Source: a virus (lineage: Duplodnaviria > Heunggongvirae > Uroviricota > Caudoviricetes). From it: a DNA stretch of 64,000 nt. Shown here in pieces: positions 3,011-63,999 of the stretch. The notes below the pieces were generated by a model, which was not told the origin of the DNA, ran no database searches, and was given only the letters and a program-made list of their open reading frames with translations. The stretch lies in the IMG/VR virus record IMGVR_UViG_3300037418_003161, positions 108,420 through 172,419 of that record; one strand, given 5' to 3'. The translations under genes and the position numbers were made by a program. The number at the start of each line of letters is the position of its first letter. Within the stretch, counting starts at the first letter, position 1.

Positions 3011-5161
3011 TTATTTCAAAAGCTCATTCAAATCTAATTGTTTGAACTTATTGTTTTCATTCAAGGGCTTGAACACGTAGGCTGTTACCTCTTTAGGTTC
3101 TTCCCCTTCCACAACTGGTTGCAATTCTGAAAAGTTAAGATTCTTATCATCATAACAAACCGGAATAACAACCTTGTTGTTTAGTTCTACCAATTCTTGG
3201 ATGGTCACATCTTGGAACAAGTCATGCACACTTGGGATGGTCGCCAAATATTCCACAATGCCCGGCATTAGCTCTACCAGTTTCTTTGCGTTTCTTACAG
3301 CCGAATTTACTTCAGCCTTCAGGTTGGCATCCATGTAAACAAGCTTTCTTTCTGCAATATCCACATAGGCGATGAACTTAGCGTAGTTATCATCCTTCAG
3401 AGGGAAGGCGATTTGGCTACGGCTTGGTTCAAACAGTTTACCCTTATTGGCATCTGTACCCCATTGTAGGGCTGCAAATACGTCCGTTGCATCCTTAAAT
3501 TTGATTTTGCTGTAACATAATACACTCCATACGGCGTAACGCACTCCTGCTCTTGCCAATTTATCCAAATACAGGTCAATTAATTGACATGCTTTACCAT
3601 CTGTGGTCTTGGAATTGGTTGGGTCGCCGGAGAACAGGGCCGCATCACCGAATTTAGGCTGATTCCATGCCACATCCCCAACACTTTCCCAATTCTGATT
3701 ATAGAAATTCCAACCATTGTCAAACCAGTTGTTACCAAAGGTTTTATTCTCCCAATAGCTTGCCGTTCTGATGAATTTAACATCATCGGGAATTGGAAAT
3801 ACAGTTCCACGACCATAGGCGGTTGAATCAGAAGCATTCAACTTAATATTGGTGGTTCTTTCATCTAAAAGAACAGGAACGTTCAATTTGGTCTGAACCT
3901 TTGTTTTGACTGTTATATTAATCATAGCAATTAAAGACAGCCTTATAGCTTCAGGAAACTTCTTACCGGAATTTTCAACCACCCTCACTTTTGTCCAGTT
4001 GCCCTTGGGTGGAAACAGTCTGTACTTACGGCTGTTGCACGTTTCAAGATATTTCTTCAGCTTCAGGAGTTGACCAACGGTCAATCTCTCTGCCACACTA
4101 CCAAATTCATTCAAAACCTCGCTACCGAAAAGAATTGACAATTGTTTAATTCTTCTCATAAATTCTCCGGGTCTCTTGGCCGCATATGTAACCGCCACGA
4201 CAGTATTGGATTTGATGAGCATATCCAATTTGCTGTTGAAGGAGTGTATATCATCCACATACAGCTTGCTTGCTGCCGTTACAGTTTTTGGGAATCTGTT
4301 TTTATAATCCCCGGCGTGTAGGTTGTGCATGAAACGCTTCCATACTTCCACATCTCTTGCCATATCTTCTTCAAGTGCCGTAGATTTCTCTAACAGACCC
4401 AAAAAGAAACGTCTTTCCTTCTTTTTAAAATTTCTGAACTTGGTTGGCTTGGTGGAGTTCAGGTCGCCATCGGACAGGACAATTGCCAAACGCAAAACGT
4501 CCGTAGCAGATTTCATGGTGATATCCGTTCCCTTTACCATCATATATTCCACCACCTTTACCAAATTCTCCTTGAAAGGAATGGCAGTAGCGGTAAGCTG
4601 AGGTTTCAGCGTATCAATCAACCAATACACCGTACCCAAGATGTGTCTGTTCCATCTTGTTGTTTGTTTTAACAAAGAATCCAAAATAGAAGACAAAGAG
4701 TTTTCGTTGGCAAGGTGAAGCACCTTCAGGGAATCTTTAGGGAAAATAGGCTCTCTGTCCTTAGCCTCAGTGGTGAACCATTCGTTGGGAAGGCCCACGT
4801 ACATCAGCACTTGGTTGAACCAATATTCAGCCTCGCTCATTTCCAATACTTCCTGTGGAAAGTTTTTGTAAACAACATATTCACCCATGTTGCGGTTGTC
4901 CCCGGTAATTTCCTTCAGGGCCGCATCAATGTTGTTCCACCACAATTGGATTGAGGTTCTGTCCAATGCGGTCAGGGTTTCTATAGAGGCTTTCGACAAA
5001 GTATAACCGTAATAAGCCAAATTGGTAAAAATTGTGGCAACAACGTCTTTGGAAGCCTGTCGCTTACCTGTTGCTTTGGGAATCTCAATGAGATTATTGC
5101 TAATAAGAATGACATCCTTAACTGTGCTTGTAGCAACATTGGTTTCCATAACGTGTTCCAT
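3011..5161 (-). CDS. large protein: helical N-terminal region plus C-terminal TerD-like domain
   Basis: 716 aa; FSGDPTN..G...QLIDLYL..L...GVRYAVWSVLCY resembles TerD; N-terminal SATDVLRL and RPGEFMRR motifs. Confidence 0.6.
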   Translation of the reverse strand: MEHVMETNVATSTVKDVILISNNLIEIPKATGKRQASKDVVATIFTNLAYYGYTLSKASIETLTALDRTSIQLWWNNIDAALKEITGDNRNMGEYVVYKNFPQEVLEMSEAEYWFNQVLMYVGLPNEWFTTEAKDREPIFPKDSLKVLHLANENSLSSILDSLLKQTTRWNRHILGTVYWLIDTLKPQLTATAIPFKENLVKVVEYMMVKGTDITMKSATDVLRLAIVLSDGDLNSTKPTKFRNFKKKERRFFLGLLEKSTALEEDMARDVEVWKRFMHNLHAGDYKNRFPKTVTAASKLYVDDIHSFNSKLDMLIKSNTVVAVTYAAKRPGEFMRRIKQLSILFGSEVLNEFGSVAERLTVGQLLKLKKYLETCNSRKYRLFPPKGNWTKVRVVENSGKKFPEAIRLSLIAMINITVKTKVQTKLNVPVLLDERTTNIKLNASDSTAYGRGTVFPIPDDVKFIRTASYWENKTFGNNWFDNGWNFYNQNWESVGDVAWNQPKFGDAALFSGDPTNSKTTDGKACQLIDLYLDKLARAGVRYAVWSVLCYSKIKFKDATDVFAALQWGTDANKGKLFEPSRSQIAFPLKDDNYAKFIAYVDIAERKLVYMDANLKAEVNSAVRNAKKLVELMPGIVEYLATIPSVHDLFQDVTIQELVELNNKVVIPVCYDDKNLNFSELQPVVEGEEPKEVTAYVFKPLNENNKFKQLDLNELLK

Positions 5162-10218: not shown

Positions 10219-11829
10219 TCAAACTTCCAAAGACCACACATATTTTATCACACCACAATCATATATCCTATAAATTTTCCGTTCGAACATAATTTCTTTT
10301 TCAGTTTTCCCGTTGACATCAAATCCCTCTTTTTTCAACTGCGCCTTGGTGAAGTTTAAACGATGGAATCTTCGCCCATTTATAACATACCAATAATTGG
10401 GAAGTGAATGGCTTACCTTTTTAAAACCCAATCGTAGATAGGCATCCCCATTAAATATTCTTCTGTCGGCCATGGTGATAACTTTGGTTGGCTTATAGGT
10501 TTCCAAAAAATATTGGAATAATTTGTTTGCTGCACCATGCACAGTGGTAAATATTTTATTTGCAAATCTGACCATTTCATAAACATTTCTCTCATACTTC
10601 CCGATTCCCTTTCTTACCATACCAAACGACATTACAGATATCAATTCACCATTTGAAAATAATCCCAACCGGATACTTGCTTTGGCATATCCCTGAATGT
10701 GGTTGGCTTCAATAAACGCCTTATATGTTTTATTATCAAGTTCCTGAAGAACGGTTTTTCTACCAAACACCTTATTGGGTGTGAGACCAATTTTATTTAA
10801 AATGATGGATTCAACGATGGATGGTTTCAAAATAATTTCATCATCAAAAAAATGTATGAGATGCACATCGTTCTGTTCTGCCGCCAGCGTTTTATTTAAA
10901 TGAAAATCAGGCTCAACAAACAATTCATTGTGGTGGTATACACCATTGCATTCAATACCCAATTTCTGTTGGGGGAGATATGCATCGATTTCTTGTTTTC
11001 CTTTTAACAACCCCCTTTTGTTTTTTTCAAAGGCTACTTGGTGTCTTTCCAATATATCAAATATCATTCGTTGGGGGCTACTGTCATTTGCAACACCCAA
11101 TGGGAAGCAAATAATACAGGGGTTGTTGTTTACTGCATGTCTTTCTCTGAACACCTGTTTGTGAACTACTACTTCGTTGCCGCAGGAAGCACAGATAAAC
11201 GTACAAAAATGTTTGGTATCTTTTTCTTTTATAAAATTATACACATCAAATCCTTCTCTACTATAAAACACTTCCTTCATTTGGTCTTTAAACCTATCGG
11301 ATTGTGCATATTGTTCCACACCATATCTTTCTTTGTTGGTCTTTTTTCTTTTATCAAGGTTATTATAAGTGGGGTTGCCATATTTTTTCCGTTTTGTCTG
11401 CATCATCTTTTTAGGGTTATTGAAGGTCTCCGACCCGTACCGTTCCTTTTTGGTTGTTTTGGTCTTGTCTTCCCATAACTTATGTTGAGAGAAGAAATCA
11501 ACCCCGTATTTTTCCTGATTTGTTTTTTTTACACGCTTGGTGTTTTCTTCTATCTTACCATTGAAACAGGACTGTGAGCAAAACTCATTAAACCCTTTTT
11601 GGAGTGTTCCTCGAAAATTCACAGACTTTCCACAAATACACCTTTTTTGTGTTTTAATGTCATTTATGAAATACCACACCTTTTCTTTGAAAGAAAGACC
11701 CTCCATTTTATGTTGGAGCGCAAATGTTTGAATTGCAGCATAAACTTCAGGAAAATTCTTATGAAGCAAACGTTCATTGGTTTTCCATCCGCTTTTATTA
11801 TCTGAAATAAAAAATTCTTTATAGTCCAT
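10219..11829 (-). CDS. free-standing homing-endonuclease-like protein (Zn finger + KYG repeats + Vsr-like nuclease + GNAT-like C-terminus), copy 1
   Basis: CICG..FCSQSC; KTNQEKYGV repeats; EIDAYLP..LGIECNGVYHH..LIHFFDDE; HIQG..MVRFA..GAANKLF..TMADRR. Confidence 0.8.
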   Translation of the reverse strand: MDYKEFFISDNKSGWKTNERLLHKNFPEVYAAIQTFALQHKMEGLSFKEKVWYFINDIKTQKRCICGKSVNFRGTLQKGFNEFCSQSCFNGKIEENTKRVKKTNQEKYGVDFFSQHKLWEDKTKTTKKERYGSETFNNPKKMMQTKRKKYGNPTYNNLDKRKKTNKERYGVEQYAQSDRFKDQMKEVFYSREGFDVYNFIKEKDTKHFCTFICASCGNEVVVHKQVFRERHAVNNNPCIICFPLGVANDSSPQRMIFDILERHQVAFEKNKRGLLKGKQEIDAYLPQQKLGIECNGVYHHNELFVEPDFHLNKTLAAEQNDVHLIHFFDDEIILKPSIVESIILNKIGLTPNKVFGRKTVLQELDNKTYKAFIEANHIQGYAKASIRLGLFSNGELISVMSFGMVRKGIGKYERNVYEMVRFANKIFTTVHGAANKLFQYFLETYKPTKVITMADRRIFNGDAYLRLGFKKVSHSLPNYWYVINGRRFHRLNFTKAQLKKEGFDVNGKTEKEIMFERKIYRIYDCGVIKYVWSLEV

Positions 11830-11850
11830 TTAAAACAAAGATAAATAAAA

Positions 11851-11871
11851 ATACCGGATTTTACCGGGATT
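11851..11871. repeat. degenerate CCGG palindrome
   Basis: ATACCGGATTTTACCGGGATT. Confidence 0.45.
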
Positions 11872-11918
11872 TCCAAGTGAATCAATATTCTCATATTGTT
11901 GTTCACAATGGGTACAAA

Positions 11919-11952
11919 TAAAAAATTCCATGCAGAAATATGCATGGAATTT
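11919..11952 (-). terminator. intrinsic terminator after tail tube gene
   Basis: AAATTCCATGCA-gaaata-TGCATGGAATTT. Confidence 0.75.
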
Positions 11953-12007
11953 GAAGTAATATAAATACTTGATAGATGTTATAACATATATAAATTTTAT
12001 ATAATAA

Positions 12008-12496
12008 CTAAAACACCTGAATGCACCTATCCGGCTGAATCGTAACCTGAATCTCGGCTAGTCCTTCTTCCGCATAGCTCAGGTCTTGGAAGTTCATATC
12101 GGTAATCATTGCGCCTTGGATAATCCAACGTTCAACAACAACACCACTTGGGTCAAGCATGTCGAGTTCAATGTCTTTCTTATAAGATACTGCATACCCC
12201 ATTCTACCAGTTACAGATTCGGCATGTTCTCTAAACCACTCCATCAAGGCTTGAGAAGCTGAAGGCCCAATTGGGTCACGGAACGTGATAGAAATAGCGT
12301 CCCATTTAAATCTACCCGCAACAAAGGTTGACGTGTTTAAGAATGGAATTTCAACCGCACCGATTGTTGCTTTCGGACGTGCCGCAGTTGAGACATACCA
12401 CTCGTTGATACCCATCGTTGATGGGAAACGAACCACGAACCTGTTTTTCTTCTTAGGCTCAAATGGAATTGGTAATTTTGAAAGAAGTGTTGCCAT
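12008..12496 (-). CDS. tail tube protein (T4 gp19-like)
   Basis: FEPKKKNRFVVRF..IPFLNTSTFVAGRFKWDAISITFRD..WFREH..YKKDIELDMLDP..ERWIIQGA..LSY..IQVTIQPD. Confidence 0.9.
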   Translation of the reverse strand: MATLLSKLPIPFEPKKKNRFVVRFPSTMGINEWYVSTAARPKATIGAVEIPFLNTSTFVAGRFKWDAISITFRDPIGPSASQALMEWFREHAESVTGRMGYAVSYKKDIELDMLDPSGVVVERWIIQGAMITDMNFQDLSYAEEGLAEIQVTIQPDRCIQVF

Positions 12497-12578
12497 ATTT
12501 ATATTTATGTTTTATATTTTATTACGGTAATCATTAACCGTTAGATATAAATATGTTGCACTTAAAAAAATTTAAAGA

Positions 12579-14192
12579 ATGGAGAAAGAATTATTTACTT
12601 TTTTTACAACTGACAATAAAAGCGGGTGGAAAACGAGGGAAGACAGACTGAGGAACTACGATAATAAATTATGTGAAGCCATTCTTTTGTATACAAACCA
12701 TTTAACTCTTTCATTTAAAGAAAGGATATATCACTACATATATCAAATCAAAGAAATCCCCAAATGTAAAAACTGTAATAAGGAATTAGTATTTGGAAGG
12801 TCGATTCAGGAAGGATATGGAACGTATTGTTCCATGTTGTGTATGAACAAATGTGATGAACATAAAAAGAAGGCGAGAGAAGCAATGGACTACGACACCA
12901 CTTTTGAAAAAATAAAAAAAACAAATTTAGAAAGGTATGGGGTTGAGAATATTTTTTCAAAAACTGATTTTATTAAAAATAAAATGATTGAAAAATATGG
13001 GGTGTCGCACCCAACACATATCAATGGTATCATTGAAAAAAGAACGCAAACAAATAAAAAGAAATACGGAGCAGTTGTAGCGGTAGCTAATAAAGAATAC
13101 CTTAAAAACAAAAAAGAAGTCCATTTAAAATCCTTGTCTGAAAAATATTCTGTTCAAATTAAAGACAGGTATAATGATAATATTTTAGCGTTATGTACAT
13201 ACCATGTGGTGTGTGATAGGTGTAACAATGAATACTTAATAAAAAAACCAACATTCGATTATAGAATCAAAAGAAGAATTAACCCTTGTATATTTTGTAA
13301 TCCTCTCAACGAAAACGATTCTCTCATTCAAAAGGAACTTTTTGCACAAATTTCCGGCCTAACCCAAAATGTTCTTTATAACACAAAAGAGATTATACCC
13401 CCAAAAGAATTAGACATATATTTTCCCAATGAAAAATTTGCGGTTGAGTTTAACGGGCTTTATTGGCACTCTGATAAATTGAAAGAAAAAACCTATCATT
13501 TGAATAAACTTAAACTGTGTGAAGAGCGTGGAATAAGGTTAATACAAATTTTCGAAGATGAATGGTTAGGAAAATCAAATATTGTTATTTCACTAATAAA
13601 GGCAAAATTAGGAGCATTGTCACATAAAATATATGCCCGGAAATGCACCATAAAAGAGGTTTCGTTTGTTGATGCTAAAGAATTCCTTGATAGCAGTCAC
13701 CTCCAAGGCAATTGTGTATCCAAATATCGGTATGGTTTATATTTTAAAGATGAACTTATGATGATAATGACGTTTGGTAAAAAAAGAAAAAACTTGGGGG
13801 AAAACCATGTTGAAGGGGAATATGAACTACTTAGGCTCTGTAGTAAAACAGATACATCAATAATTGGTGGCGCAAGCAAACTCCTTAATCATTTTATTGA
13901 GAAACACAACCCCAAAAAAATTATTTCATATGCCGATAAACGGTATTCAGATGGAAAAGTATATGATAGTTTAAACTTCAAATATGAACATGATTCACCA
14001 CCAAACTATTATTATTTGGATAAAACAAACTTCAAACGCATCAACAGATTCAACTTTCGCAAAGACGTATTGGTGAGAGAGGGATATGACATAAATAAAA
14101 CTGAAAAAGAGATAATGGAAGAGAGGGGTTATTCAAGAATTTATGATTGTGGAAACAAAAAATACGTTTTAGAATGTGGAAAACTTTTTTAG
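12579..14192 (+). CDS. homing-endonuclease-like protein, copy 2 (paralog of 10219-11829)
   Basis: Same FF.DNKSGWKT.E N-terminus; ELDIYFP..AVEFNGLYWH..IQIFEDEW; HLQG..LLRLC..GGASKLL..SYADKR. Confidence 0.8.
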   Translation: MEKELFTFFTTDNKSGWKTREDRLRNYDNKLCEAILLYTNHLTLSFKERIYHYIYQIKEIPKCKNCNKELVFGRSIQEGYGTYCSMLCMNKCDEHKKKAREAMDYDTTFEKIKKTNLERYGVENIFSKTDFIKNKMIEKYGVSHPTHINGIIEKRTQTNKKKYGAVVAVANKEYLKNKKEVHLKSLSEKYSVQIKDRYNDNILALCTYHVVCDRCNNEYLIKKPTFDYRIKRRINPCIFCNPLNENDSLIQKELFAQISGLTQNVLYNTKEIIPPKELDIYFPNEKFAVEFNGLYWHSDKLKEKTYHLNKLKLCEERGIRLIQIFEDEWLGKSNIVISLIKAKLGALSHKIYARKCTIKEVSFVDAKEFLDSSHLQGNCVSKYRYGLYFKDELMMIMTFGKKRKNLGENHVEGEYELLRLCSKTDTSIIGGASKLLNHFIEKHNPKKIISYADKRYSDGKVYDSLNFKYEHDSPPNYYYLDKTNFKRINRFNFRKDVLVREGYDINKTEKEIMEERGYSRIYDCGNKKYVLECGKLF

Positions 14193-22496: not shown

Positions 22497-22984
22497 TGAA
22501 TTTGTACGGTATATATAATTTTGCGTTCTTGTTTAGGTTCTTCAACCTGTGACTGATTCCACGCATTTTTAGCCCAAACAGAACCCATATTACCCAATCT
22601 TTTATCATAACGTCCATGTATTTCAAAATCACTTAAAGGTTTTAATGAGTAGATATAAAATACATCTTCATCCATTCTCCAACCTCGCTTTTTCGAAAGA
22701 TAATTTTTCATTGTATAAAGTTTGGTTACATAGAGACTTCTATTTTCATAATTGCGTACACGCTTCATAATTCTGTCAAATAGGTCTAAAATTTTATCAT
22801 CATAAGTTTCAAACTCAATTCCCAATTCACTCATAGCCATTCGAAAATAAAGATGCATGAATGCACCGTGATGTTGGTTGGTTTTCGCAAACCAAACATA
22901 TTGTTTCCATAAAACCTTAATAGCCTTTTCTTCTTGGTTTGTAAAAACGTAGTCGTGAAGCATCTGTTCAATCAAAAGTTTCAT
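22493..22984 (-). CDS. hypothetical AT-rich protein
   Basis: MKLLIEQ start after ATATTTAT (alternative ATG 22990). Confidence 0.55.
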   Translation of the reverse strand: MKLLIEQMLHDYVFTNQEEKAIKVLWKQYVWFAKTNQHHGAFMHLYFRMAMSELGIEFETYDDKILDLFDRIMKRVRNYENRSLYVTKLYTMKNYLSKKRGWRMDEDVFYIYSLKPLSDFEIHGRYDKRLGNMGSVWAKNAWNQSQVEEPKQERKIIYTVQIQ

Positions 22985-23029
22985 ATCCATAAATATTGAC
23001 TTATCCCGCATATTTTTTTATGCTGTAAA

Positions 23030-25783
23030 ATGTTACCGCAATTGAAAGCCTTGGAAATATTACAGACCTATGAAGGAAAGAACAATCAGATTCTTTATTG
23101 GCGACATAAGATTTTTGAGGAGAAAGCAACGATTACCCGTTCACAGGCTGATTATATTCTCCAATATCACAACAAACCACCGAAGGTTGCCAAGAAACCT
23201 ATTAAAATCGAAGCATACTTCGGTGAAAGGTTGCAGGAAGAAAGAAACTTACCGAATGTCCCGGAGACAATTTGGTGTGAAAAATTATTGGCTGAAAGTG
23301 ATAAGGCTTTTCACATAATGGGGAGGGTTGTGGATGGCGCAAAATTGGAGTTCATGTGGATTCCCAAATGTTTTATCATCAGAGAGAAGAAGTGTAATGT
23401 TTGTGTTGATTATTCAAAATATGACCACAGACCTCCAATGGCACACCAAAAGGTTGCCATTGAAAAATTATTGTGTAACGATAAGTTTATTTTGGCTGAC
23501 GATATGGGGCTTGGAAAAACGGCCTCGGCAGTTTTAGCTTCAATAGAATCCAATTCAGAAAAAATTTTAATCATTTGTCCCGCAAGCCTAAAAATAAATT
23601 GGAAGCGTGAGATAGAAATGTATACAAATGCTTCAGTATCTATTGTTGAGGGTAAGGAGTGGGAAGACGGCCATAAATATTATATCATCAACTATGACAT
23701 TATTAAAAATTTCCATAATGTTCCGGGTAAAAAGAAAACAAAGAAAGTGGAAGATGTAGTGATTGAGTTGGAATATACGGATGAAGAAAAGGAATTGATG
23801 AAACGTATTGATGAAACAAAATTTGATTTGATGATGATAGATGAGTGTTTTACTTATAATACATTAATACAAACCAATAAAGGTATGATTCCAATAGGCG
23901 AAATAGTAGATAATACTATGGACGTTCAAATATTATCATACAATAAGGAGGAAGAAAAACTTGAATATAAAAATATAAACAGGTGGATAAAAAAAACCAC
24001 TAATAAAAAATTGGTTGGGGTCAGACTTAAAAACGGAAAAACAATTGAATGTACTGACAACCATAAATTTTATGTAAAAAATAAAGGTTATGTCCCCGCA
24101 GGAAAACTTGAAAAAAACGACCAATTGTATGTGGTGTCTGAAAGAACTGACAAAGAAACAAATTATAAAAAAGACAATTTATTGTTCAAAGGGTTGTGCA
24201 ACACTCAAAAGAAATTCAGACAGGCGAGCAAAAAAAGAACCTATAAAAAAAACATGCCCGGAATGTGGCAAAGAAAAAATCTTCAAAAACAAATCGGAAA
24301 TGATGAGGCAGGAATGTTGCGGCAAAACGTGTATGATGAAACGGAGACACAGGTTAGACAAAACAGTTCACGAAAAAATGAGGAAAAGTTTACAAGGCCG
24401 CACGTTTCTTGCAAGGGGTGGCAACTCAAAGACAACGAGACAACAAAAATCACTATACGAAAGCCTTGGGGATGGATGGATATTAGAATTACCAATCAAA
24501 ACAAAAGAAGTGAAAGAATTATTCAAATCACTCCCACATTCATACAAAGTGGATATTGGAAACGAACACATGAAAATTGCGGTGGAGGTAGATGGAAAAA
24601 CACACAAACAACACAAGTGGAGGTTTTTGGACAAGAGGAAAACGGAAGTATTGAATTCGTTGGGGTGGAGAGTGTTACGGTTTTGGAACGAAGAAGTGGA
24701 AAACAGTTTGGAAGACTGTCTGAAAAAAATACAAGAGTTTATGACCTTGAGATAGAAGATAATCACAATTATTTTGCTAATCAAACCCTTGTAAGTAATT
24801 GTCATTTTATCAGTAATCCAAAGGCTCAACGCACCCAATTAATCAACAATATTGCGGAGAAAACCAAAAAGTTGTGGCTTTTGACCGGGACACCCATGAC
24901 TTCTCGCCCGATAAATTATTTTAATCTTCTGAAGTTGATTGATTGTCCCATTGCCCACAACTGGCAAGTCTATGTGAGACGATATTGTAAGGGATACCAA
25001 TTCAAAGTTAGGGGGAAAAGGATATGGAACGTGAATGGGGCAAGCAACTTAGATGAACTTCGGGAGCGCACCAAACCTTATCTGCTTCGCAGACTAAAAA
25101 CCGATATTTTGGATTTGCCGGAGAAGATTATTACCCCGGTTTATTTGGAACTCAAATCCAAGGAATATGAAGACGAGATGGAAGAATATTTGGATTGGAG
25201 TGAATTGGAAGGCAAAGAGGCTTCTTTATCAATCCATATTAATAAATTAATGAAGGTGCGTACCCTGATTGCAAGGGAGAAAGTACCATACACAATTGAG
25301 ATGGTGGAGCGTTTGTTGGAGCAGGAAAAAAAGGTGATTGTATTTACCAACTTCACGGAAACACTGGAATCCATTGCCCGGCATTTTGGAAAACAGGCAG
25401 TTACGCTTGATGGGAGAATGAACAAACTAAAACGGCAACATTCAGTTGACCAATTTCAGGAAAACCCTAACATTAAGGTATTCGTGAGCAATCTGAAAGC
25501 CGGGGGTGTAGGGATTACACTTACGGAAGCGGAAGCGGTGGTGATGAATGACCTCTCGTTTGTTCCGGTGGAACATGCACAGGCTGAAGATAGAAGTTAT
25601 AGATATGGTCAAAAGAAATCAGTATCGGTTTATTATCCTCTTTTTGAAAATACCATGGAAATGATAATGTATGATATTTTATGTCGGAAAAAGGTTGTCA
25701 TTAATACCGTAATGGGGGACGAAGAGTTTAATGAAGATTTTGGACTCAGCTTTTTGGAGAAACTGAGTGAAGGTCAGGAATAG
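23030..25783 (+). CDS. SNF2/SWI2-family helicase (intein-containing)
   Basis: LADDMGLGKT, ICPASLKINW, IDE/CH, LLTGTP, LLRRLK, GGVGITLT, QAEDRSYRYGQ. Confidence 0.92.
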   Translation: MLPQLKALEILQTYEGKNNQILYWRHKIFEEKATITRSQADYILQYHNKPPKVAKKPIKIEAYFGERLQEERNLPNVPETIWCEKLLAESDKAFHIMGRVVDGAKLEFMWIPKCFIIREKKCNVCVDYSKYDHRPPMAHQKVAIEKLLCNDKFILADDMGLGKTASAVLASIESNSEKILIICPASLKINWKREIEMYTNASVSIVEGKEWEDGHKYYIINYDIIKNFHNVPGKKKTKKVEDVVIELEYTDEEKELMKRIDETKFDLMMIDECFTYNTLIQTNKGMIPIGEIVDNTMDVQILSYNKEEEKLEYKNINRWIKKTTNKKLVGVRLKNGKTIECTDNHKFYVKNKGYVPAGKLEKNDQLYVVSERTDKETNYKKDNLLFKGLCNTQKKFRQASKKRTYKKNMPGMWQRKNLQKQIGNDEAGMLRQNVYDETETQVRQNSSRKNEEKFTRPHVSCKGWQLKDNETTKITIRKPWGWMDIRITNQNKRSERIIQITPTFIQSGYWKRTHENCGGGRWKNTQTTQVEVFGQEENGSIEFVGVESVTVLERRSGKQFGRLSEKNTRVYDLEIEDNHNYFANQTLVSNCHFISNPKAQRTQLINNIAEKTKKLWLLTGTPMTSRPINYFNLLKLIDCPIAHNWQVYVRRYCKGYQFKVRGKRIWNVNGASNLDELRERTKPYLLRRLKTDILDLPEKIITPVYLELKSKEYEDEMEEYLDWSELEGKEASLSIHINKLMKVRTLIAREKVPYTIEMVERLLEQEKKVIVFTNFTETLESIARHFGKQAVTLDGRMNKLKRQHSVDQFQENPNIKVFVSNLKAGGVGITLTEAEAVVMNDLSFVPVEHAQAEDRSYRYGQKKSVSVYYPLFENTMEMIMYDILCRKKVVINTVMGDEEFNEDFGLSFLEKLSEGQE
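23846..24799 (+). mobile_element. intein (318 aa) inserted in helicase DExH motif
   Basis: Starts CFTYNTLI after IDE; block B ECTDNHKF; block F VYDLEIEDNHNYFAN; ends VSN then Cys; splicing restores IDECH. Confidence 0.93.
24090..24755 (+). CDS. Vsr/DUF559-type homing endonuclease in +1 frame inside the intein
   Basis: CMWC..YCSKGC, CPEC..CCGKTC; YKVDIG..IAVEVDGKTH..DKRKTEVLNSLGWRVLRFWNEEV. Confidence 0.88.
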   Translation: MSPQENLKKTTNCMWCLKELTKKQIIKKTIYCSKGCATLKRNSDRRAKKEPIKKTCPECGKEKIFKNKSEMMRQECCGKTCMMKRRHRLDKTVHEKMRKSLQGRTFLARGGNSKTTRQQKSLYESLGDGWILELPIKTKEVKELFKSLPHSYKVDIGNEHMKIAVEVDGKTHKQHKWRFLDKRKTEVLNSLGWRVLRFWNEEVENSLEDCLKKIQEFMTLR

Positions 25784-63390: not shown

Positions 63391-63999
63391 TTATAAAAGC
63401 ATTTCATATTTTAATTTACCACAATCCCAAACCCAATCCCAACCAAAACTTTTCATCCAACCCCATTCTGTGTTGGCATCAATATTTTCAACTTTAAATT
63501 TCTTTTTGATATTTCTCTTCCCAAAGTTGAATTTATGGAATCGCTTAAAACGAGAAACTATTTCATTATAGTACCAATAATCAGGTGGGATGGCTTTTAC
63601 CTTGGTGAAGCCAAGTTTAAGATAAATATTGTCGGTTTCATTTGACCATCTTCTATCAGCCATGGAAATTATTTTGGTTGGATTGTATTTCCCAATAAAA
63701 TATTTCAATAGTCTGTGAGCAATTCCGCTACAGATGACATTATTATCCACACAAAACCGGGATAATTCATATTCATGTGATAAATTTTTGATGGTGGTCT
63801 TATTCATTCCCCGGACATTATCAAAACACATTACAGCAATCAACCTATCACCATAAAATGCTCCCAATTTAATTGGTGATTTATTTGCCCCCTGAATATG
63901 GTGTTTCTCCAAAAATAAATTTTTAAGAACTGAATCGATTTCACGAATTTCACATTTACGGGCATGGATAATTTCATTATCTGTTTTCTTATTTATTAT
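63391..63999 (-). CDS. homing-endonuclease-like protein, copy 3 (C-terminal GNAT-like part; 5' truncated by window)
   Basis: Frame open to window edge: IHARKCEIRE..HIQG..ELSRFC..GIAHRLL..SMADRRW..WDCGKLKY. Confidence 0.8.
   Translation of the reverse strand: MINKKTDNEIIHARKCEIREIDSVLKNLFLEKHHIQGANKSPIKLGAFYGDRLIAVMCFDNVRGMNKTTIKNLSHEYELSRFCVDNNVICSGIAHRLLKYFIGKYNPTKIISMADRRWSNETDNIYLKLGFTKVKAIPPDYWYYNEIVSRFKRFHKFNFGKRNIKKKFKVENIDANTEWGWMKSFGWDWVWDCGKLKYEMLL

Follow-up and report, generated by a model that had tools for sequence, protein, structure and literature searches.

A putative Vsr-like homing endonuclease gene overprinted in the +1 frame of an intein in a phage SNF2 helicase

Canonical inteins carry their endonuclease in frame. 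The intein described here interrupts a helicase gene within a 64,000-nucleotide (nt) stretch of viral DNA (hereafter the window; G000:C1:108420-172419, part of a 236-kb viral record) and has no recognizable nuclease in its host frame, which poses the question of where a homing function might reside in such an element. We consider it highly probable that the element is a mobile intein inserted at the Asp-Glu/Cys-His junction of a phage SNF2 helicase and that the enzyme responsible for its homing is encoded by a gene of its own, written over the intein in the +1 frame. The 236-kb record has a CheckV completeness of 73%, and near-identical copies of the window DNA occur in several soil and rhizosphere metagenomes from different studies. 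The helicase gene and the parts of its intein are as follows (aa, amino acids; ORF, open reading frame; pLDDT, the predicted score of the local distance difference test).

23030..25783, + strand: SNF2-family helicase precursor gene, 917 aa, a single frame through the intein (Pfam: SNF2-rel_dom 4.9e-23, Helicase_C 5.9e-17, Intein_splicing 1.7e-13)
23840..23845, + strand: the DExH-box (motif II) codons for Asp and Glu, final N-extein residues ahead of the insertion point (Asp-Glu-Cys nearly invariant in 91 related host-frame flanks; nearest relatives with an uninterrupted DEAH or DECH)
23846..24799, + strand: intein, 318 aa, from Cys1 to Ser-Asn, followed by Cys +1 at 24800-24802 (sequence motifs, Pfam, relatives)
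23846..24133, + strand: splicing (HINT) part at the N-terminal end, holding blocks A and B (ECTDNH) (pLDDT 94-97 over model residues 50-140; PT-HINT and Intein_splicing matches; T114 and H117 nearly invariant)
24134..24640, + strand: host-frame linker, a K/R/Q/N/T/G-rich read-through of the endonuclease gene, predicted disordered (pLDDT 37-54; 27.8% hydrophobic residues vs 37.9% in the exteins; less conserved than the +1 frame)
24641..24799, + strand: C-terminal splicing part with blocks F and G (...NHNYFANQTLVSN) (blocks with pLDDT >90; Y343, L359, V360, N362 and C363 nearly invariant)
24800..25783, + strand: C-extein, beginning with the Cys-His of the DECH box (ORF, Pfam, nearest helicase relatives)

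Across the two intein junctions the precursor reads ...MMIDE/CFTYNTL...LVSN/CHFISN..., with the insertion splitting the Asp-Glu and Cys-His of the DExH box of helicase motif II, and the Pfam order in the 917-aa product places the intein splicing domain between SNF2-rel_dom and Helicase_C. The intein gives a single match to Intein_splicing (PF14890; 1.1e-14, 55 bits against a cut-off of 35.8) over residues 14-318, in which positions 9-155 of the 155-position profile span 305 intein residues, and this stretching of the model over ~300 residues indicates a large insert inside the intein. The residues of a class 1 intein are present (Cys1, TxxH as T-D-N-H, Asn318 and Cys at +1), and the penultimate His is absent from block G, where the intein ends in Ser-Asn. 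That His is common but not obligatory, and inteins without it can splice; among 86 relatives the penultimate residue is Ser in 46 and His in 37. As no stop interrupts the host frame of the window copy and the host gene is not broken into two ORFs, the intein is of the contiguous, predicted cis-splicing type. Pfam detects no endonuclease in the host frame, including no LAGLIDADG or HNH family match, and the centre is hydrophilic. In the predicted structure of the precursor the HINT parts are beta-rich and modelled with high confidence, and the poorly scored centre coincides with most of the overlap described below; judged from the model alone, the N- and C-terminal intein parts would adopt a HINT fold. 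A first-pass annotation of the window had claimed a 318-aa intein in the helicase DECH box, a Ser-Asn end without the penultimate His and a low-information in-frame centre devoid of LAGLIDADG or HNH motifs; ORF, motifs and Pfam agree on the first, the second proves to be a family trait, and the third accords with the absence of in-frame Pfam matches, the composition and the low pLDDT. Separately, phrog_16259, annotated as 'DNA helicase', matches intein residues 1-94; the last part of its 330-position profile resembles an N-intein and suggests construction from the N-terminal halves of fractured or mis-called intein-bearing helicases.

The nuclease appears instead in a second frame of the same strand, where the following features are found.

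24090..24755, + strand: overprinted putative homing-endonuclease gene, 221 aa, +1 frame (DUF559 2e-15; 92 homologues; 29/29 invariant residues; mean pLDDT 87)
24090..24092, + strand: endonuclease ATG, across the Tyr-Val codons of the intein G-Y-V (GGT TAT GTC, 24086-24094) (ATG-in-GYV also in many distant lineages)
24126..24332, + strand: two CxxC...C...C zinc-finger-like modules, residues ~13-81, the presumed DNA-binding part (C56, C59, C77 and C81 conserved; weak MYM/FCS-type finger matches; structure model)
24396..24743, + strand: Vsr-like/DUF559 nuclease domain, residues ~103-218, with invariant E166, D168, H172 and D181 (DUF559; 3hrl, 3r3p and 1vsr matches)
24753..24755, + strand: endonuclease TAG stop in intein block F (...YDLEIED...), 16 codons before the +1 extein residue (in relatives, 5-19 codons before the junction)

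The 221-aa protein matches DUF559 with 57 bits against a cut-off of 20.6 and carries CxxC pairs in its N-terminal half. Its frame and the host frame are both open over 666 nt, while the third frame contains 35 stops over the intein. Within the 236-kb record a search of the whole record with the endonuclease returned only the protein itself at E <= 0.01; other Vsr-like genes of the window (10219-14192 and 63391-63999), considered as close paralogues, are accordingly rejected as such. The residues E166, D168, H172 and D181, invariant in 28 homologues, may by residue type correspond to the composite catalytic motif (E, D, H, D) of I-Bth0305I or Vsr. The structure model of the protein reaches pLDDT 93-98 in the nuclease domain and resembles a Vsr-type nuclease fold: the best Foldseek matches are 3r3p (target template-modelling (TM) score 0.69), 3hrl (0.73) and 1vsr (0.53), with E-values of only ~2e-3, and profile comparison matches 3hrl (3e-11) and 3r3p (0.027). 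The zinc-finger and Vsr/DUF559 ORF at 24090-24755 had thus been correctly recognized at first pass, as had the position of its ATG in the block B GYV, of its TAG in block F and the 666-nt dual-open overlap, all of whose coordinates are confirmed.

The recurrence of this layout was examined with searches that used the endonuclease as query. A protein search returned 92 homologues, and a tblastn search of phage genomes returned 40 records, mostly Vibrio phages; among the tblastn matches listed, the locations fall inside annotated helicase or other large ORFs. In the three Vibrio phage lineages examined, the match lies at +1 to a helicase ORF with the reading DEC...HNCHH through an intein. A single-protein search of viral contigs gave no match and an alignment-based search was needed there; with a 28-sequence alignment it recovered 80 viral and 24 bacterial loci. 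In IMG/VR as a whole, DUF559 relatives number at least 263. We classified by script the host-frame openness of 112 fetched loci from phage records, viral contigs and bacterial genomes: in 107 of them the endonuclease is +1 to a frame that is stop-free over the whole endonuclease ORF, and in none of the 112 is it in frame. Contig ends aside, the host frame of nearly all the 107 remains open for ~200-1100 codons to either side, whereas the other same-strand frame holds 5-46 stops across related loci. The +1 ORF is thus conserved, contrary to one outcome that would have spoken against the proposal. Of the 91 different host-frame flanks, 87 match Intein_splicing, in most cases at this same position in a helicase; in addition to Asp-Glu-Cys, T..H and Asn-Cys are nearly invariant in the 91 flanks, and C/N/C is found in 82 relatives. 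The host proteins include SNF2, ResIII and methylase-helicase fusions, and six flanks carry a clamp-loader (DNA_pol3_delta2) domain.

One of the five exceptions, L077, is a genuine fractured gene: an N-intein ORF, the endonuclease and a C-intein ORF follow one another, and the two intein ORFs share one host frame and are separated by 26 stops. At L077:2705-5191 the N-extein/N-intein ORF ends at 3538, the endonuclease spans 3438-4223, and the C-intein/C-extein ORF begins at or before 4085. Free-standing or decayed endonuclease copies make up the remaining four. The bacterial copies L097, L109 and L111 (Massilia, Polaromonas) are of this free-standing or decayed kind; L097 and L111 adjoin ORFs that resemble transposase genes, and L111 keeps two host-frame fragments with two stops between them. 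Elsewhere in the set, L089:152-5695 and L046:860-4966 hold a second, canonical intein with an in-frame LAGLIDADG_3 in another part of the same helicase gene, and at L122:1620-4472 the DExH-box intein is absent and an apparent intein-like insert lies further upstream. The cyanobacterial Desmonostoc locus L090 was considered as a dnaX case and rejected, its host being an SNF2 helicase.

Selection acts differently on the two frames. In pairwise comparisons, which are not phylogenetically independent, the third codon position of the endonuclease differs about twice as often as the first or second at every divergence level, and amino-acid identity is likewise always higher in the endonuclease than in the host frame (0.83 vs 0.70 at 80-90% nt identity; 0.47-0.53 vs 0.29-0.39 in most pairs that include the window). 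The +1 frame is under purifying selection and the host-frame linker is not, being merely kept open. How it is kept open can be read from codon choice: in 94 distinct nested endonucleases, pyrimidine-ending codons before AA, AG or GA end 0 times in T and 1704 times in C, where the zero is partly definitional (loci were classed as nested for having no stops) and the excess of C is the informative part. Elsewhere in the same genes the counts are 4677 T and 2592 C, and free-standing relatives show 76 T and 106 C before AA, AG or GA. Because NNT and NNC are always synonymous, every host-frame stop can be removed in the +1 layout at no cost to the endonuclease; unavoidable host-frame stops number 0 in this layout, compared with a mean of 4.0, and 5 for the window protein, in the other same-strand layout. 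We infer that this freedom of the code explains the stability of the +1 register, which common descent of the composite element would explain equally well.

The distribution of the element is sporadic. An uninterrupted DEAH or DECH is found in the nine viral-contig helicases nearest to this one (C-extein identity 47-62%), and GenBank phage helicases at greater distance align in two adjoining pieces, the intein being absent, a pattern that would fit gain of the element by homing and that does not in itself prove current activity. In the mechanism that we propose, ribosomes would start independently at the ATG at 24090, on the helicase mRNA or an internal transcript, and the free endonuclease would cut intein-less DEAH or DECH alleles in co-infecting relatives, after which repair would copy the element into the cut allele. 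Protein splicing, through Cys1, TxxH, the terminal Asn and Cys +1, would restore the helicase, and the linker would loop out at the place that an in-frame endonuclease domain occupies in canonical inteins. In the host-frame read-through only the two ends resemble a HINT domain, and what separates them, 170-220 codons, is the endonuclease gene read in the -1 frame.

Could the second frame nonetheless be spurious or dead? An artefact, in which two compensating indel errors displaced an in-frame endonuclease or the +1 ORF stays open by mere chance, might be suspected in a metagenome assembly with homopolymer runs in A-rich sequence, yet its probability is vanishingly small. Synonymous permutation of the endonuclease codons yields a mean of ~10 host-frame stops and no stop-free sequence in 20000 trials, and the reverse permutation test leaves 6 of 20000 stop-free; the dual-frame openness is not due to chance, and the +1 layout recurs in independently assembled loci. 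Compensating frameshift errors at both ends, the failure that the first-pass annotation had named, are excluded, because contigs of two other studies (soil and rhizosphere) cover 23982-24285, 24037-24187 and 24504-24766, and with them both overlap boundaries, with 0 differences and 0 gaps. It is less far-fetched, though still improbable, that the window ORF is an inactive or decaying remnant, open only because the element arrived recently, while the intein survives as a mini-intein with an extended spacer. Once an element is fixed, decay of its nuclease is what the homing cycle predicts; the endonuclease is a single copy in the 236-kb record, and it is the shortest of its clade (221 vs ~267 aa). 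Opposed to decay are the retention of 29 of 29 invariant family residues, including E166, D168, H172 and D181, the 221 codons without a stop, the confident predicted fold of the nuclease domain, and substitutions that in window pairs are still concentrated at wobble positions. A handful of observations do weigh against an overprinted, active and independently expressed homing endonuclease in the window: the protein lacks ~40 residues, between the second finger and the nuclease domain, that most full-length relatives possess, and its activity is therefore not assured, even if the natural members P0017, P0023 and P0027 lack the same segment; the pairs in the substitution counts are uncorrected for shared descent, and the absence of T from the codon counts is in part built in; the AAAGG of the window lies only 2 nt from the ATG, too close for a classical Shine-Dalgarno site; and a Bacteroidota-type promoter (TTG-N17-23-TAnnTTTG), present elsewhere in the window, was not found in 22800-24200.

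The last two points bear on the expression route, for which the first-pass annotation had allowed internal initiation or +1 frameshifting. Programmed +1 ribosomal frameshifting out of the helicase frame would give a fusion of N-extein, N-intein and endonuclease in place of an independently initiated protein; both frames overlap on one strand, an A-rich run (GTAAAAAATAAAGG) precedes the overlap, and no promoter or well-spaced Shine-Dalgarno site is evident in the window. We nevertheless regard this route as very unlikely. In the window and most of its clade, the +1 frame is closed by a stop 4 codons upstream of the endonuclease ATG, which would confine any shift to that tiny interval, and the A-run heptamer would favour -1 and not +1 slippage. 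The ATG-in-GYV recurs across distant lineages, several Chloroflexi and viral-contig relatives have a GGAGG 7-10 nt upstream of the ATG, inside Thr-Glu-Glu codons, and in L077 the same endonuclease stands as a gene of its own between the halves of a split intein. A-rich and weakly structured (minimum free energy -7.2 kcal/mol, z 0.34), the start region offers no stimulatory structure, and neither the upstream sequence nor RNA structure around the endonuclease start gave a convincing frameshift signal. Because of the conserved ATG, the +1 stop 4 codons upstream and the lack of notable RNA structure, internal initiation is our best guess and would fit the sequence better than +1 frameshifting. 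The nearest promoter-like match, TTG-N14-TAAATTTT at 24047-24071, lies just 5' of the endonuclease ATG, differs from the TAnnTTTG box at one base, has a shorter spacer than the promoters matched in other parts of the window, and is not preserved among relatives. A sigma-70-like promoter signal was also considered and set aside (20 matches vs 11.9 +/- 3.8 in shuffles), as it indicates nothing specific.

An intein with a host-frame splicing domain and an overprinted +1 nuclease therefore remains the preferred reading, and the proposal of a dual-coding composite parasite is supported by the recurrent layout, by selection, by stop avoidance and by the predicted folds. A wider proposal, which we advance tentatively and with considerable doubt, is that the +1 Vsr-like/DUF559 layout represents a large, old and largely unannotated intein lineage that never has its nuclease in frame and that counts more than 100 loci, most of them at helicase motif II, in phages and in bacteria such as Chloroflexi. 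Persistence of the +1 register may reflect that the code makes it free; the intein codons would supply the start (Tyr-Val) and in some hosts the ribosome-binding site (Thr-Glu-Glu), and helicase translation would compete with nuclease initiation and hold down the nuclease dose. In gene calls the element is either absorbed into the helicase or represented by the endonuclease alone, with the helicase dropped, and a whole lineage of mobile elements and nucleases would therefore go unannotated; for the T4-like metagenome contigs L004 (L004:215-2722), L005 and L006, public calls give a 268-aa endonuclease and no helicase, despite the open helicase frame. The system also offers a clean natural case of long same-strand dual coding in which one frame is informative and the other only open, and its codon signature (C for T before AA, AG or GA) is usable to find further cases. 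In practical terms, it could provide compact inteins, predicted to splice in cis and having a tolerant loop, as well as a collection of zinc-finger/Vsr-like nucleases with putative long conserved targets in helicase motif II.

This general kind of arrangement has precedents. Out-of-frame or antisense intein endonucleases were reported by Gorbalenya 1998, as cited in later papers, and the non-canonical inteins of Gosselin, Arsenault and Gogarten (bioRxiv 10.1101/2025.01.02.630785) and of Phillips, DeSimone and Gogarten (bioRxiv 10.64898/2026.09.14.751524) include actinophage cases with an antisense LAGLIDADG, an antisense VSR-like and a frame-3 endonuclease VII-like ORF, as well as a cyanobacterial dnaX intein whose +2-frame ORF is described as LAGLIDADG-like. 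The first-pass caveat that alternate-frame intein endonucleases might already be noted in other phages therefore holds. Like those elements, the window intein combines a host-frame splicing domain and a disordered in-frame centre with a folded endonuclease, as predicted, in an overlapping ORF, with purifying selection on the endonuclease ORF and an open host frame. Unlike them, its ORF is same-strand, +1 and Vsr-like/DUF559 with zinc fingers, its site is motif II of a superfamily 2 (SF2) helicase, its endonuclease start and stop fall inside splicing blocks B and F, and the layout is common to ~100 loci outside actinophages; according to the 2025 preprint (bioRxiv 10.1101/2025.01.02.630785), VSR-like endonucleases were otherwise known only with split inteins. 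A literature search of incomplete coverage found no published report of a same-strand +1 Vsr-like/DUF559 layout in helicase inteins, and within that coverage it is this variant that appears new, overlapping out-of-frame intein endonucleases being already known.

The nuclease itself may be compared with I-Bth0305I, the prototype EDxHD (Vsr-like) homing endonuclease (Taylor et al. 2011, PMC3239194; PDB 3R3P), with which it shares a predicted C-terminal Vsr-like fold (the top Foldseek match), an N-terminal DNA-binding part ahead of the nuclease, and conserved E, D, H and D by residue type. Unlike I-Bth0305I, which resides in a group I intron and has NUMOD and helix-turn-helix (HTH) motifs, the window protein lies in an intein and has two zinc-finger-like modules; the sequence similarity between the two is marginal, and the window protein is nearer to DUF559 (3hrl). 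The out-of-frame HNH insertions of the ShiLan type in actinophage methylases (PMC11855218) likewise hide a zinc-finger endonuclease ORF in an alternate frame, within a stop-free host-frame insertion whose read-through is predicted to loop out, but they have no splicing domain, encode an HNH nuclease and use the third frame.

A further comparison is with fractured genes, in which a split intein comes with a Vsr-like or GIY-YIG endonuclease encoded by a free-standing gene (Dassa et al. 2009, PMC2677866). It was with the split inteins of such genes that Vsr-like endonucleases first became known, I-Bth0305I being their characterised example. The window element shares with them the endonuclease superfamily, the one-strand order of N-intein, endonuclease and C-intein, an endonuclease 3' end that overlaps the C-intein coding region (by 6-69 bp in fractured genes), mostly phage hosts and DNA-metabolism genes as targets, and L077 shows the fractured form within the relatives of the window endonuclease itself. 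Unlike in fractured genes, which place the endonuclease between two ORFs with a 27-51 nt spacer, the window endonuclease is wholly overlapped by the intein. One endonuclease family thereby links contiguous inteins, overprinted endonucleases and fractured-gene split inteins, and this link supports the acquisition of endonucleases by inteins through invading free-standing genes, an origin, by invasion of a mini-intein, that has also been proposed for non-canonical inteins. The window element fits the invasion model of Dassa et al. as an intermediate or as an alternative outcome.

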